Assembly: GCA_035084275.1 (NCBI GenBank)
Contig: CM068742.1
Span: forward strand, 28,396,001-28,460,000
Reading direction: 5' to 3'
Source of the DNA: Hydrolagus colliei
Lineage: Eukaryota
Length of the DNA stretch: 64,000 nt
Shown here piece after piece: positions 28,246-54,900 of this stretch. Made by a program: the position numbers and the translations under genes. The notes beneath the pieces were generated by a model that did no database searches, had not been told where the DNA came from, and saw nothing but the letters and a program-made list of their open reading frames with translations. Position 1 is the stretch's first letter; each line of letters begins with the position of its first letter.

Positions 28246-29198
28246 ACAACAACAACAACTTCGATTTATATAGCGTCCTCCATGCTGGATGGTGTCTCAG
28301 AGCGCTTTACTATAGCGGATCCCGGGACCGAGCTAGGGGCAGGGGCAGAAAGGTGACCAAAAGCGCAGTTGAAAAGAAAGGTCTTCAGCTGTGACCTGAA
28401 ACTGGGAAGAGAGGGGGAGAGGCGAAGGGAGTGAGGAAGGGAGTTCCAGAGCCTCGGGGCGTGGTGGCTGAAGGCACGGCCGCCGAGGGTTGAGCAGAGG
28501 ATTTGGGGGACATGGAGGAGGCCAGACCCAGAGCAGCGAAGGCAGCGGGTGCTGGGTTGGGGGGAGAGGAGATCAGAGAGATAGGGGGGTGCAGAGGAGT
28601 GGAGGGATTTAAAAACAAGGGTGAGGATCTTGAAGTCGATCCTCTCTGGGATAGGGAGCCAGTGAAATCTGGCAAGGACTGGGGTAATGGGGGAGCGAAG
28701 CTTGGAGCGGATGAGTATGCGGGCGGTAGAATTTGGGATTAGCTTGATTTTGTGGATTGTGGTGGAGGGGAGACTGGCGAGGAGGGCGTTGCAATAGTCC
28801 AGCCGAGAGGTGACAAAGGCGTGGACCAAGGTTTCAGCGGCTTTTGGGGTGAGGTATTGCCGGAGACGGGCGATCCATCGGAGGTGGTAGAAGGCAGTGC
28901 TGGTGACGGACCGGATGTGGGGGAGGAAGGACAGTTGGGGGTCGAACCTGATGCCTAGGTTGTGCACAGGTTCGGAGAGTTTTAGGGGCAGGCCGAGAAG
29001 GTGGAGGAGGTGAGAGCCATGTGAATGGAGATGTTGATGAGAGCCAAGGAGTATGGCCTCTATCTTATCAACATTCAGCTGCAAGAAATTTGCGCTCATC
29101 CAGCACCTAATGTCTGAAAGGCAGGCTGACAGAACATCAGGGGTCTGGGGGTCGCAAAGTGAAGTGGAGAAATAGAGTTGTGTGTCATCTGCGTACAT
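28246..29198 (-). mobile_element. L2 LINE (subfamily B), uninterrupted RT C-terminal ORF
   Basis: ORF 28266..29327: MYADDTQLY..WMSANFLQLN..NLGIRFD..LVHAFVTSRLDYCNALL..HWLPIPERIDFKI; 5'-truncated at the YADD motif. Confidence 0.95.
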
Positions 29199-30197
29199 CA
29201 CTGTCAAGCACTCTGGGACTCTACCCCACCCTGTTGTTGTTGTAAGTGTAAATGAGGATTTCGGATGTATTGGGGTGAGATAGGATTGAGGGGGAGGGGC
29301 ATTGTTGTGGAGTACTAATTTACACATTGTTTGAAGAATGTAGTGTACACCATTCTGATAACCTAGCCCTGTTATAGTAAGAAAATCTTTACTCTACTCT
29401 CACACTCCTCTGATTAATGGGCAGTCCTCCCATGCTATCCATAAGATGTGCTAATAGAAAGCTTTCTAATCTCCAGAGCTATAAGTGAATCTTCCAGGCT
29501 TTACTGCAACATGAAGGTAGCTAGGAGACATAAATATTCTGAGTTGAATGGTTTTATATTAAGGTGCTAATTTTATTTCAGGAATCAGGTTTTGAATTAA
29601 TTTAAGCTTCTCAATTACATTTGACTTTGAAGGTTGCATTTGTTATTGATATAAGAACAATGATGGCAGATATGCCACGGCAGCAGGATAAGAGGGCACA
29701 AGTTTGGGGCTTTGAAATGTAGTTATAAGACTGACACCAGGAAGTATTTTCTTTCACTGAAGGAAAAAGCAGCAGGAAAAGGCTGCCTAGAAGGATGATG
29801 GAAAAATACAAACATCTTTTATGTTCTTGTGATTTTGAAACTTAAAGTGTGCGTGTATACTATGATGATAATACTGTACTTTGTTGCACTTCCATGTTAG
29901 GTGGTAGGAGGGGAAGATTGGGAATCACTCTGCTGGATTAATTTGAGTGGAGTTGGCTAAGGCTGTGAAGTGGCCAATCTAGGAACAGGTGGGATGAGGA
30001 ACACTTTGTCACTATACAAGGTGTGGAGTAGGTGGCAGATGATGGGAGGGCTGACGGTTAATTGAATCTCCAACACAACGCCTTCCAATACAACAACAAC
30101 AAAATTACATTTGTATTGCACATTTCACGTCAGGAGGACGTCCCAAGGTGCTGGATAGTCAGGGATTCAAAATAGGCAGGAGCAATGCTCTCCCAAT

Positions 30198-47691: not shown

Positions 47692-49120
47692 TGTCTTTAC
47701 ATCAATTGGTTAGACAGACACACAGGCAGAAATTTCGTCTTTTTAATATGGATAATCCTTGCATTTGATAAGATAACAATTGATAACAATCCCCCCAATT
47801 AATTGGTCACTCACTCATAGTTGTTTGTGAAACATTATTGTGCGCACCTGGCTGATGCGTTTCTTAATTAACAATCTATCTCTGGGATTTACATGTATAG
47901 GTGGGATGCATGGAATTCACAAAATACAGTCGATCCATTTCCTGTGAGAGATGTCTCGATAACGTATAAGGCACTATATCAATGAATTATTTTTTTTACA
48001 TTTTGTCATTGCCATAGTCTAATAAAAAGGCCCGACAAGCTCAATGAGTTCAATGGTCTATTGCTGCTCCTATGTTAATAAAAAAAGGAAACTTTGTGCA
48101 ATGTGATGCAATGTTGTGGTGTCTGATTTAGAAGCTAGAAGTTGGCAGTTAGACTCAAGGCCGTACGCAGGGGGGGTGCGACGGGTGCGTACGCACCCCC
48201 CCCAAATTATAAAAGGTCCACATTTTCCGGGGTAGAGAATTGCATTTTTTATCAAATTTAAATACCAAGTAAATTTATTGAACATTTGTGTAACAATCAG
48301 TTCTTCAAAACTATGTATAAATTATAAACACGCATCTTTGAATGATTTAGTATTAATATAAAATTATCGAGTCGCACACCAGAATCGGCGTCTACCCCAA
48401 AACATACCGCGTCGATAGACCAGTCCATGACGCGGCGAGTCTGTGACTCGTGATTGGATAAACATTGGCGCCAAGACTCAAATCCTCGTTTGGAAATCAT
48501 CCCGTAAACAGCCACAAGGGACAGCACCAATTCTGGAGTTAAAATCATCTTTTCATCTGATCACCGTAAGTACAAATTACTCAAGTGTTGAGAGGTGTGA
48601 CTGTAATGCTAGCAAACAATGACAACATATTTACAAGCTTCTGAGAACTTAAAGCTTTTGAGAACCCAACAAAAAAGTTATATGTGTCTGGACGGGAATG
48701 CCTATCTTTAACAAAAATACTCATGGACATAGACCTATGCTTTAGCGCCTATTCCACATGGTGTGTCAATCGGAAATCATCCCGTATACAGTCACTACAT
48801 AAAAAGGTAGCACCACTTTGTGGAAGCTGAAATCGTATTTTAATCTGATAAATGTAAGTAAAAATGACTTAAGTTTTGATAGGCGTGTTTCTGAAATATC
48901 ATGTTTCTTGTTTTGTCTTGATTATCACATTTGATTTATATTATTAAAAATGTATTCCAGTAATTAAAAATTGCTTTTAGAGACGTCCACTGGCGTGCAA
49001 AAAACATATGACCGCAAAGATAAACAGTGCTACTTTATTTCACTTTCAGTTTTGTACCCAGAGTGAAAAAACATCAATGTCGCACGAATTTGGCATAACA
49101 AAAGCTGATCGAGCGAACTC

Positions 49121-49370
49121 TGGCATTGTCCATAGCACTATGGACAGTTTCCTCCCGGCTTCTCCAGCTGTGTCCGCTAAACCTAAGACGCCTCTGCGGT
49201 AATGTCTGTGATACCAGTGTGGTAGTGTACCATATAGCTCACTATTTGTCAGATGCTGTCGCCAGTAAACGTTCAGGGCGTCTCTTACAAGCCTGGTATA
49301 TACCTCACGAGTCACCTAATCTCCTGGTCGAGGTTTGCCTAAGTGTCCAGCATTCTGCTCCGTATAGGAG
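49121..49370 (-). pseudogene. RTE-clade retrotransposon ORF C-terminal fragment, frameshifted
   Basis: Across frameshifts reads LLYGAECWTL..YTRLVRDALNVYWRQHLTNSELYGTLP..QRRLRFSGHSWRS..VLW, characteristic post-RT motifs of RTE elements. Confidence 0.82.
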
Positions 49371-49490
49371 CGACTTTCAGCCCTCGCGTTAATGCACATT
49401 CATTATAATATGGAAATCGATATTGGTAGAGCGGTTGACGTATTCGCTTCAAAGCGACCGAGGCGTCTCGAATACGGAACGCTATTAAAT
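49368..49490 (+). pseudogene. hAT transposase C-terminal dimerisation-region remnant
   Basis: ERLSALALMHIHYNMEIDIGRAVDVFASKRPRRLE matches the RLsxLALxxIhxxxxIDxxxxxxxFaxxxxRR end of Tip100/THAP12/ZMYM1-type hAT transposases. Confidence 0.85.
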
Positions 49491-50582
49491 AATGAATTTC
49501 CCCTCCCTTATTTTTTCAAGTATTTTTTCGTCAGATCAGTATTGCTCGATGGGTCACTTCCTTTAATTTTGATTCTAAATAAATAAATAAAAACTAACTG
49601 CACTATTGCTCACAGTTCAACGATATTTTCAGGATAATGCTGATAACAGGCTTGTAACACGTGTGAATTAACTGTTTGACACTGATTTTCAGTTTCTGTA
49701 TATTTTCTTGTCTTTTATAAAATTTGCTTTGCTGGAATATCTGAGCACAATATTCATACTTTACTCTTACATTATTGTTCATTACAGTCCGAAAGAAATT
49801 TAGTCTTAGGATAACAATGCAGAACAACTTATTAATTACCGTCAATCTGTAGTTTATGATCATTTTCTCTATACGCATACATTTATCAAGCATTCGTCAT
49901 TGTACTGTGTTAATTGGATTGTAATTTACTTTATCGTTCGCATTCCTTACATCATCGAGTCAACAATCGTGTTGGCTTTTATCGGCGAACACATTCTACC
50001 TTCCCAATTAGACACGGACTACCGGGGAAAATAAAAACACTGAATAAATAATGATGCTCTTAAACACCAAGGGCATGAAACATTTACCGTTCATATTGGA
50101 TCTTCTGAATCGATTAAATAAGACCTCAAACTGTGTAAAACGTCGGAGCCTCGAGGGGGCCTCGGGGGCAGCCCCCAAGCCGCCGGCCATTGTTGGTCCC
50201 ATCACTAGCAATTCGCACCCCCCCAAAAAAAATCCTGCGTACGGCCCTGAGACTTTACCTAGAACACTGCAAATCCCTTCTAACCCATTGGCCTTGCAGT
50301 AGACCTCTGTGACAGAATGAGGCTGCCATTTATTATAGTGCAATATAGGGTCCGTCGATATGGAAATTTTCTGATTTAGATATATCGATGGGCTCATATC
50401 GAGATATACCGATATATCGATATTTTCGGGGATTTTATACTGCGCATGCGCGCACGTTGCGAGGTGTGCACGCATTTGGGGTCTATCTCCTCAGGAAGTA
50501 AATATCTCTCTCTCTCTCTCTGTGTCTCTCACACTCACGCTCTCCATCTCTGTGTTTTTCTGTCTGTGTCTCTATGTCTCTC

Positions 50583-50760
50583 NNNNNNNNNNNNNNNNNN
50601 NNNNNNNNNNNNNNNNNNNNNNNNNNNNNNNNNNNNNNNNNNNNNNNNNNNNNNNNNNNNNNNNNNNNNNNNNNNNNNNNNNNNNNNNNNNNNNNNNNNN
50701 NNNNNNNNNNNNNNNNNNNNNNNNNNNNNNNNNNNNNNNNNNNNNNNNNNNNNNNNNNNN
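50583..50760. other. Assembly gap (178 N)
   Basis: Run of N. Confidence 1.
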
Positions 50761-51088
50761 ACATCCCCCCCGTCTCTCCCCCCCCCGTCTCTTCACCCTC
50801 CCCCGTCTCTCCCCCTGTCTCCCTCCCCCCCCAGCCATCTATCCCCCTCCTCCCCGCCGTCTCTCCCCCCCACCGTCTCTCCCCCTCCCCCGCCGTCCCT
50901 CCCACCCCCTCCGCCATCTCTCCCCCTCCCCCGCCGTCCCTCCCACCCCCTCCGCTGTCTCTCCCCACCCCGCCGTCTCACCCCCCCCCGCCATCTCACC
51001 CCACCACCCTCTCTCCCCCCCCACCTTCTCTCCGCCCCCCCCACCGCCGTCTCTTCCCCCTCCCCTGCTGTCTCTACCCCCCACCGCC
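50761..51088 (+). repeat. C-rich minisatellite (CCCCGCCGTCTCTCCCCCT-like) inside the hAT element
   Basis: Degenerate ~17-nt repeats; G-quadruplex-prone opposite strand. Confidence 0.9.
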
Positions 51089-51907
51089 TTGGTCTGTGCA
51101 TTGTGTATAGAGATGACCATTCTGGGTCTTGTAATTCAGTGCGTGCGCATTCCGATTTTTTCGATATATCGATTTTTCGATACTTTGAAAATGCCTATAT
51201 TGGCATATCAATATGTAAAATATATCGGATATAACTGATATATCGATATATCGCCAGACCCTAGTCCAATACATATCCTACTTTGACAATAAGGTAAGAC
51301 ATAAACAGTTGAATTCCATTAGGATAAACCCATTCCAAATTGAAAATAAATCCAACCCTGGTACAAATAGGACACCAGATTTCTTATGGAAATGCTTCCA
51401 GACAGTTAGCTTTACTTGTGTTAAGGATGAGTGAACAGGCTTGCATCAAATTCAGGCCAAATCTGCTGAACTGCTACCAATTCTCCTCGGGCTCAAAGAC
51501 AGGCTAAAGATTTGGCTCAGCTCCAACCTCTAGTTTACTTCTGGGAAAACAGATGTGAAACAAATGACACAAAATAAGTGTCCACACCTTGCAGAATTTT
51601 CATCAAATGTGTACCCAAACCACCAACCAATGTCTGGAGACCTTGACATTTCATTAGCTGACTTACACTCAACCAGTTTTTAATCTCTCTTCTGCTCTTT
51701 TCCTTTCTATTTCATTCCAGTGTTCCCATCTCCCCCCTTTCCTCTCTTCTCTTCACTTCTCCTCTCTAGCTCTCTTCTCTGCAGTCCTCTCCTCTCTTCT
51801 CTCTTGTTCCATTGAATCCAACTGCTTTTTCCTGGCCCATTCTATAATCTCAGTCAATGAATATCAACAAGTTATTTGATCACTGCTAAACATGTAATCT
51901 ATGCATA

Positions 51908-53073: not shown

Positions 53074-54290
53074 AACAACAACAACAACAAATTAGACTTA
53101 TAGAGCGCCTTTCACGTCGGGAGGACGTCCCAAGGTGCTGCACAGGAGGCGTGTGACCCGAGCTGGGAGGGGAGTGTTCGGGAGGGGGTAAGAGACGTGG
53201 GGGAGGTCGAGAAATTAGGGGGGGAACAAAAGGCACGGTCAAAAAGGAAAGTCTTCATACCGGCCTTGAAAGAGGAAAGGGAAGAAACAAGGTGGAGGGA
53301 TTGGGGGATGGAATTCCATAGGGTGGGAGCGGAGAAGCTGAAGGCCAGGCCTCCGATGGTGGGGCGGTTCGGGCGGGGGGCTTGGAGCAAACCAAGTCCT
53401 GCTGAATGGAGGGTCCAGGTGGGCTTATAGGGGGAGAGTAGATCGGATATGTAGGGCGGGACAAGGCTTTGAAAATGAGGACAAGGATCTTGAACTCGAT
53501 CCTCTGGGGGATGGGGAGCCAGTGGAGACGGGCGAGGGTGGGGGTTATGTGGTCACGGAAGCGGGTGCGGGATAATACACGGGCTGCAGAGTTTTGGATG
53601 ACCTGCAGCCTGTGAATGGAGGAAGTGGGGAGGCCGACGAGGAGAGAGTTTCCGTAGTCCAGCCGTGAGGTGATGTACGCGTGCACGAGTGTTTCGGCAG
53701 CGTGGCGGGTGAGATAGTTGCGGAGCCTGGCAATGTTACACAGGTGGAAATAAGCGGTGTCGGTCAAGGCACGGATGTAGGGGAGGAAGGAGAGTTTATG
53801 GTCGAACGTGATGCCGAGGTTCCTGACTGGCTTTGTGAGGTGGAGAGTACAGCCTTGGATGTGGAGGCTGGCAGCGCCCGATGTGCAGAGGCACTGGCTT
53901 GAGCCAATCTTGAGGGCCTCGATCTTGCACACGTTCAGTTGGAGGAAGTTGTCCCTCGTCCAGGACTCGATGTCGGACAGACATGCTGTCAGAACATCGA
54001 TGGTCTGGGGGTAGAGGGATGAGGCTGAGAGGTACAGTTGGGTGTCATCCGCATACATGTGGAAATTTACCCCATGTTTGCGGATGACATCGCCCAGAGG
54101 GAGCGTGTAAATGGTGAAAAGGAGGGGGCTGAGGACAGAGCCCTGGGGAATGCCATGAAAAACTGTGCGGGGGTTTGAGGAAAAACCGTTAGAAGATACA
54201 AAATGTAGGCGGTGGGTCAGGTAGGAATGGAACCAGTCAAGGACTGTGCCTTGAAGATTGAGGTGGGAGGAAAGACGTTGAAAGAGCATG
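53074..54290 (-). mobile_element. L2 LINE (subfamily A), 1.2 kb with RT core
   Basis: ORF 53255..54532: GIPQGSVLSPLLFTIY..HMYADDTQLY..SRLDYGNSLL; frameshift near 53460; (CAA)n tail. Confidence 0.95.
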
Positions 54291-54539
54291 AGAGATGCTG
54301 AGTTAAACAAGAAGTGATGATTAGATTCTCTGGCACTCAAAACTAATTTGAACATATTAATTATATATTTTATGTGTCCTTTATTAAAAAAAATTAAAGA
54401 GCAATTTATTTTGAAGGTCAGACAAAGCATTAAAAAAACCCTCATAAGTGCAGAGACATAATTTGGAGAAAGGTTCTTTTTGTACAAAGAAACACAAATG
54501 CAATGTGATGGGTGATGTGGTGAGTCTGGCACCTTTAGG

Positions 54540-54900
54540 AACCTCTGTCAAGTTTTAATTGAACACGGATGGAGGTAAATGATACTTGGTAATTCAGCGT
54601 GAGGAGGAATTAATTAAATGTACTGGTCCGTAATGACCACTTGAACATTCATTCAAGAAACTGTTACTGACCTGTGTGCTCAAGAAATCAATGAGTGGCA
54701 GGAACAAACCGAAAAGGAAGCTCACACTTTATTTCACCTTGTGCTAAAAACTGAGACCCGATAATTGAATGTAACAAAATAAAATTAAAAACATCCTAAG
54801 CGGGAACTGACGTTTTTATTGCAAAACGGTGTAGATTTTCTTTATTGTGTATGGAAATATTTACCAAACCAAGCCCAGGGAGTGACATCAGTAGAGCATT
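54540..54900. promoter_or_regulatory. Candidate conserved non-coding element
   Basis: Unique, with TTAATTG, AATTAATTAAA, TTTTATTG and TGTCA motifs; conservation not tested. Confidence 0.42.

Follow-up and report, generated by a model that had tools for sequence, protein, structure and literature searches.

We found that the two coding remnants described by the first-pass annotation, one from an RTE-type retrotransposon and one from the tail of a transposase, both lie inside a single 2,094-bp non-autonomous hAT element at 48156-50249 of the window (the whole 64,000-nucleotide stretch of Hydrolagus colliei DNA analysed here). The element is bounded by terminal inverted repeats (TIRs) of 16 bp and by a 5-bp target site duplication (TSD) of the hAT5 type, which the annotation had overlooked. 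It is quite probably a deletion derivative of a longer parent that already carried a 5'-truncated RTE-like insertion, likely acquired in an earlier host and kept as a neutral passenger. The reported peptide motifs are indeed there: LLYGAECWTL and RRLRFSGH occur in one frame of the minus strand and YTRLVRDALNVYWRQHLTNSELYGTLP in another, and the plus frame from 49368 encodes ERLSALALMHIH followed by 30 further transposase-like residues. The RTE piece starts at 49105 and not at 49121, and it lacks 144-148 bp between 49128 and 49133 (table 1).

Table 1. Features of the hAT element and its flanking duplication, in window coordinates.
Feature	Position	Strand	Basis
Left TSD copy, 5 bp (AGACT)	48151..48155	+	flank comparison
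Left TIR, 16 bp; 15/16 complementary to right TIR	48156..48171	+	
Non-coding left arm, in common with the 4.9-kb parent; at its end, the RTE's left duplication survives in degenerate form	48172..49104	+	
Direct repeat no. 1, ~110 bp; GTAAGT donor-like site at 48566 as predicted 5'-UTR exon end	48492..48599	+	inferred
Direct repeat no. 2, ~110 bp; donor-like site at 48854, where the RTE-holding intron is predicted to begin	48772..48887	+	inferred
RTE-like LINE remnant, ORF C-terminus, frameshifted, from the 473-bp 5'-truncated insertion	49105..49370	-	
Breakpoint of the 2,637-bp deletion	49370..49371	.	alignment to parent; 591 exact junction copies
Final ~41 codons of hAT transposase; the parent's stop position is a sense codon in the window copy	49371..49496	+	
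Right arm, comprising 3' UTR and subterminal region, with AATAAA at 49578 and 49586	49497..50233	+	
Right TIR	50234..50249	+	
Right TSD copy, 5 bp	50250..50254	+	

The family to which this element belongs is large and young. A DNA search of the genome (1.0 Gb; best 40 of 1,674 candidates scored) returned 36 near-full-length matches at 94-100% identity, counting the window copy. To the annotation's question whether other genomic copies share the junction between RTE and transposase, the answer is yes. The junction is present in all 30 copies that we fetched (L007 and L008 have common flanks and represent one insertion), and a 25-nt sequence spanning it has 591 exact matches in the genome, against none for the reversed control. 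Hence, the junction is not a product of chance, and the RTE piece, far from being unique to the window copy, is carried by hundreds of copies. Differing flanks and TSDs proper to each copy show that these are separate insertions made after the deletion. The notion of a class I/class II composite that moves as one unit is borne out by these hundreds of copies with their own 5-bp TSDs, and the ends that they have in common with the parent indicate that they were almost certainly mobilised in trans by its transposase. Four RTE-bearing copies stand at ~15.4-kb spacing at G000 C62:119994-166199, probably within a tandem array.

An exact duplication of 5 bp or more flanks 27 of the 30 fetched copies, and one of 8 bp flanks none. 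We rejected the 8-bp TSD of classical hAT elements, as every copy has at least four mismatches in the 8 positions. The 5-bp TSD of the hAT5 kind occurs in 27/30 derivatives and in the long copies L093, L096 and L092/L171, and the TIRs have the short length of the hAT superfamily. By its 5-bp TSD, short TIRs and hAT transposase, the window element is of the hAT5 type. In the available text of PMC12730594, which cites Kapitonov and Jurka 2007, hAT families with 5-bp duplications are termed hAT5; our family resembles this group in its hAT transposase, short TIRs and 5-bp target duplications, a likeness of features rather than a lineage placement by phylogeny. No account of the family was found in the literature covered; Repbase Reports, where it may be annotated, and most subscription journals lay outside that coverage.

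The transposase tail of the window led us to an 835-aa metagenome protein (P0005, 76% identity), which passes the Pfam cut-offs for DUF4371 and Dimer_Tnp_hAT. P0005 is 80.5% identical to the transposase of the genomic copy L094, which matches such hAT clusters at 0.97. Core motifs, which we take to be catalytic, are present, and the combination of a dimerisation domain with a putative catalytic core is that of a hAT-superfamily transposase. Against the genome, P0005 gave 65 matches (best 54 of 1,151 candidates scored), six of which cover the whole protein at 82-84%. The long copies matched by P0005 have both arms in common with the window element. In the longest form (L092/L171) the parent measures 4,923 bp and has TIRs and a 5-bp TSD; L093 and L096 also show both TIRs and 5-bp TSDs. 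Its transposase ORF spans ~846 codons. Open frames persist in L094 (846 codons) and L096 (845 codons), both of which carry an internally shortened RTE piece. As L096 (753-5329) combines its open frame with both TIRs and a 5-bp TSD, an autonomous copy may persist in the family. Among six long copies, the dN/dS of the transposase is 0.52-1.01 at 2-4% synonymous divergence, which fits the expectation for copies that decay after insertion. Window copy and L171 are 92-95% identical on both arms, with gaps in the window copy only. The window element is thus a derivative in the usual sense, sharing its ends with a longer coding element of the same genome and lacking the middle. A 142-bp left-arm segment beside the RTE tail, missing in the window lineage, occurs in L099-L105, in L112 and in organism B (run X11); it may mark an older form of the element.

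In the parent, the RTE piece is 473 bp long, antisense, and flanked by two copies of a 9-bp sequence, the second of which ends 159 bp before the start of the transposase ORF. It begins abruptly in mid-ORF and ends at the ORF stop and a short ATG-repeat tail. It has the 5' truncation, 3' repeat tail and flanking duplication of insertion by target-primed reverse transcription, and is an ordinary 5'-truncated LINE insertion. The piece is found at least in part in 29/30 long-copy loci and whole in 7/30; both halves of the 9-bp duplication are seen in 10/30, and the pattern of tail plus duplication occurs 482 times. The first-pass annotation had seen neither an RTE tail nor a TSD, which is accurate for the window copy, where a 12-bp deletion between 49104 and 49105 removed the tail and part of the duplication, but not for the parent and many other copies, in which both are present.

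We assign the piece to the RTE type on the basis of its homologues and their ORF layout, rather than of Pfam or of a reverse transcriptase (RT) phylogeny, so that the name is to be read as putative. The annotation had made the assignment depend on a match to RTE profiles. A Pfam scan of the three short peptides matched no family, and P0001, a protein recovered as a homologue, gave a sub-threshold match to DUF6451 alone; the identity is instead carried by the homologues. The RTE C-terminus, taken from the sister copy L077, which retains it, matches P0001 at 88% over 82 aa. The P0001 cluster has 11 members from metagenome assemblies, and its longer relatives (44-60% identity to P0001) include single frames of ~1,000 aa with AP-endonuclease (PF03372/PF14529) and RT (PF00078) domains on contigs of ~3.2-3.6 kb. 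LINEs of the RTE clade have tandem-repeat tails. Their endonuclease and RT are encoded in a single frame (in the available text of PMC3391268), and this is the layout of the P0001 relatives; in the hAT-borne piece, the ORF stop is directly followed by the short repeat tail. Unlike those LINEs, the piece is a dead 473-bp 3' fragment, which cannot retrotranspose and is copied as DNA. Per segment, it is 26/28 to 50/59 identical to the free family. Divergence among the 22 copies that retain every segment (of 120 loci) is 2.4-2.6% in the RTE piece and 2.8-3.4% in the arms, values near enough to give no clear sign of constraint on the piece. In 34/36 loci the frame is interrupted by the same short piece of additional sequence, which suggests that the RTE began to decay before the family spread.

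Relative to the parent, the window copy shows losses only: 23 bp, the 12 bp just mentioned, 75 and 69 bp on either side of 4 surviving bp, and, at the junction, 2,637 bp. With the last of these went 54 bp at the 5' end of the RTE piece, the second duplication, an acceptor-like splice site and almost the whole transposase ORF. The overlap of 3-4 nt at 49367-49370 that the annotation reported between the two remnants proved largely illusory. The glutamate codon of ERLSAL is GAA in 16/16 parent tails (of 17 loci) and GAG in the window, so the final letter of the window codon derives from the RTE and the break between 49370 and 49371 occurred without exact overlap. The junction ends have an interrupted similarity instead, with GA in common before the break and ACTTTCA just after it. 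A genome pattern with guessed parent codons before ERLSAL had no match because the parent uses GAA, and is no evidence of absence. Different deletions are seen in the other subfamilies, with eight types or more among 30 position-ordered loci, and the junction is one of many later internal deletions. In a tree of the right arm (57/77 distinct sequences, at most nine per structural class), copies bearing the junction fall on both sides of the deepest split. The order of the subfamilies is therefore read from their nested structure, and not from this tree.

One subfamily with the same junction (L061, L062, L065 and L087) has lost the 3' end of the RTE and some of the left arm, in whose place stand ~770 bp of other DNA. 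This insert (about 1735-2510 in L065) occurs at 12 or more loci, is in part SINE-like, has short matches in the window and gave no match in Rfam; it is probably a second passenger, from this host.

The left arm contains two repeats of ~110 bp, each with a GTAAGT donor-like site, and the long copies have a long pyrimidine run and an AG ~35 nt before the transposase start codon, with in-frame stops between. Their RTE piece stands between the second donor-like site and this acceptor-like site. Going by these consensus sites, the piece probably lies within a predicted 5'-UTR intron and would be spliced out. Such a location would explain why the insertion was tolerated.

The annotation also raised the question of whether the RTE family exists in this genome outside the hAT element, and had missed that it was not found elsewhere. 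Protein queries recovered no free copy among the candidates scored. The upstream part of P0001 had no match in the genome, and the RT part of the family (P0015, all 95 candidates scored) reached 33-34% at best, in an ORF that we presume from its motifs to be R2-like. With P0019, a 345-aa member of the RTE's own family (best 117 of 2,427 candidates scored), none of the scored matches extended upstream of residue 193, which is the truncation point, and the 36 matches inspected (the top 30 and the six picked as likeliest to be free) were all borne by hAT copies. A 29-mer from the RTE 3' end has 474 genome matches, and 100/100 of those listed are borne by hAT copies (97 overlap the pattern of tail plus duplication, and three are placed by their locus); the 29-mer represents the hAT-borne version, so free copies that differ there could be missed. 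The predicted empty-site pattern, searched with two mismatches allowed and no positive control, had no match in the genome. The RTE family was thus not found in the host and is seemingly absent, although a few short, old free copies may exist. The R2-like element is itself represented by several near-identical copies with an open 1,058-aa frame (L121-L129 and L177), on small contigs that are possibly rDNA arrays, and on contig C6 a related RT piece is repeated in tandem over ~3.3 kb.

Parts of the long element are present in 14 of the 16 sequencing runs listed, which come from five organisms and from metagenomes; the fish-gut runs X6-X10 form no part of the comparison. Contigs of organism B span both edges of the RTE insertion, those of C and D also cover RTE sequence, and most contigs from these three are at least 95% alike. 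Organisms B, C and D may be close relatives that inherited the element together with the RTE piece. Loose ends at the 5' edge of the RTE in organism C did not read as upstream RTE sequence. Organism E has a more distant hAT; its contigs do not reach the RTE stretch and none joins across, and it was not counted as an empty site. We found no transposase relatives with flanks in metagenome or viral contigs, no RTE relatives in viral contigs and no P0005 relatives in prokaryote genomes. The RTE has three distant loci in metagenome contigs (27-49%), which we left aside. No empty-site relative was recovered from the host genome, the metagenome and viral contigs or the prokaryote genomes.

The history that we propose starts with a single antisense insertion of an RTE-type LINE into the non-coding left part of the parent, of which 473 bp with an ATG-repeat tail and a duplication of 9 bp remained. 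As this insertion would lie in the predicted 5'-UTR intron, it would have left the transposase intact. The piece would then have gained the frame breaks that the copies have in common, its decay preceding the spread, and the parent would have entered this lineage horizontally, already carrying the piece. Finally, many internal deletions produced non-autonomous subfamilies, including that of 2,637 bp, which joined RTE to transposase tail and now stands at 591 copies or more with their own 5-bp duplications. We regard it as moderately probable that the piece inserted in an earlier host and then travelled here by horizontal transfer together with the hAT. Horizontal arrival is suggested by the failure to find either an empty parent or a free RTE copy, and insertion in another host is likely because the best RT match in this host is 33% (R2-like) whereas metagenome proteins are 88% identical to the piece. 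The RTE might instead have inserted within the present host lineage, from a source family of low copy number or short life that has since been lost or is too decayed or too short to detect, with one marked hAT founding all copies; the composite itself would then not have to be transferred. This is rather unlikely, even if our searches scored the best candidates (117 of 2,427; 150 of 1,130), organisms B-D may be relatives and horizontal movement is known for RTEs themselves (PMC5381603, in the text available). Nothing longer than the captured piece was recovered with three protein queries, though the RT search reached as far as an R2-like ORF at 33%, and a piece that is 26/28 to 50/59 identical to the free family implies that sister copies should be recognisable. 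An active LINE, moreover, usually leaves many truncated copies.

That the antisense piece serves the transposon, as a promoter, an extra splice donor or a source of regulatory antisense RNA, seems improbable to us. Its partial retention in 29/30 long copies would fit such a role, as would a further GTAAGT on its antisense strand ~215 nt before the acceptor-like site. Yet subfamilies have lost different parts of it: most of the piece is gone from L094 and L096, the copies with open ORFs, and its 3' end from the window and SINE-bearing subfamilies. Its divergence is just slightly below that of the arms, within the range of short stretches. The least credible course, to which we give hardly any weight, is the one closest to the annotation's proposal that an RTE insertion plus a deletion removed most of the transposase: in one copy the RTE would have entered the transposase gene, and a deletion coupled to this event would have made the chimera in a single step. 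Taken alone, the window copy does look like this, with abutting coding remnants and neither tail nor duplication in sight. However, the parent has the same piece outside its ORF, complete with tail and duplication, and spread while carrying it, and the window copy aligns to the parent with simple deletions only.

Composites of a DNA transposon and a retroelement scrap are a known kind. The available text on hobo_AC of Anolis carolinensis (Novick et al., PMC3014272) describes a young hAT family that spreads fragments of RTE Bov-B, CR1, Penelope and SINE elements. As in our family, both autonomous and non-autonomous hAT copies carry class I fragments and partial deletions mark the subfamilies. 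Its authors, however, read the fragments as host DNA captured from older families of the same genome and not as insertions, whereas here a true insertion is apparent from tail and 9-bp duplication, no source family turned up in the host and the TSD is 5 bp. For MER6/MER6A, the accessible portion of Luchetti et al. (PMC6887750) reports a Tc1/mariner MITE that spread a piece of the fish V-SINE in mammals lacking that SINE; according to the paper, a single genome must have brought the two parts together, and horizontal transfer is considered. The likeness lies in a non-autonomous DNA transposon spreading a piece of a retroposon that has no source family in the host genomes. MER6 itself is very old (>12% diverged), its parent is not found in mammals and the insertion is placed after MITE formation, whereas the present hAT holds a LINE piece, is 2-4% diverged, has its parent in the genome and received the insertion before the deletion.

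The value of this family lies in the clean record that it offers, as one dated insertion marks every copy of a young family, the host seems to lack the source family, and public metagenome data contain near relatives of the RTE part as well as of the transposase part. Were the transfer real, the 473-bp passenger would serve as a fingerprint of the donor: a holder of the free RTE would mark the previous host, and the passenger would give the direction of transfer, which such studies rarely obtain. More generally, what appears in repeat annotation as an RTE family of hundreds can stem from one insertion that a transposase has copied. In addition, the complete-looking L096, with its open ORF, makes the transposition of hAT elements with 5-bp TSDs testable.

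The window holds further repeats. A second TIR element lies 96 bp to the right (50346-51263), with imperfect 16-bp inverted ends and an 8-bp duplication with one mismatch, as in classical hAT elements; it is filled with CT-rich and C-rich simple repeat and a masked stretch. No long host coding frame was seen among the 17 frames of at least 130 aa in the window. Reverse transcriptase remnants occur at 28266-29393, 53255-54547 and 1575-2159, which from their motifs we take to be L2/CR1-like, and the SINE-like and L2/CR1-like repeats presumably resemble those of cartilaginous fish.
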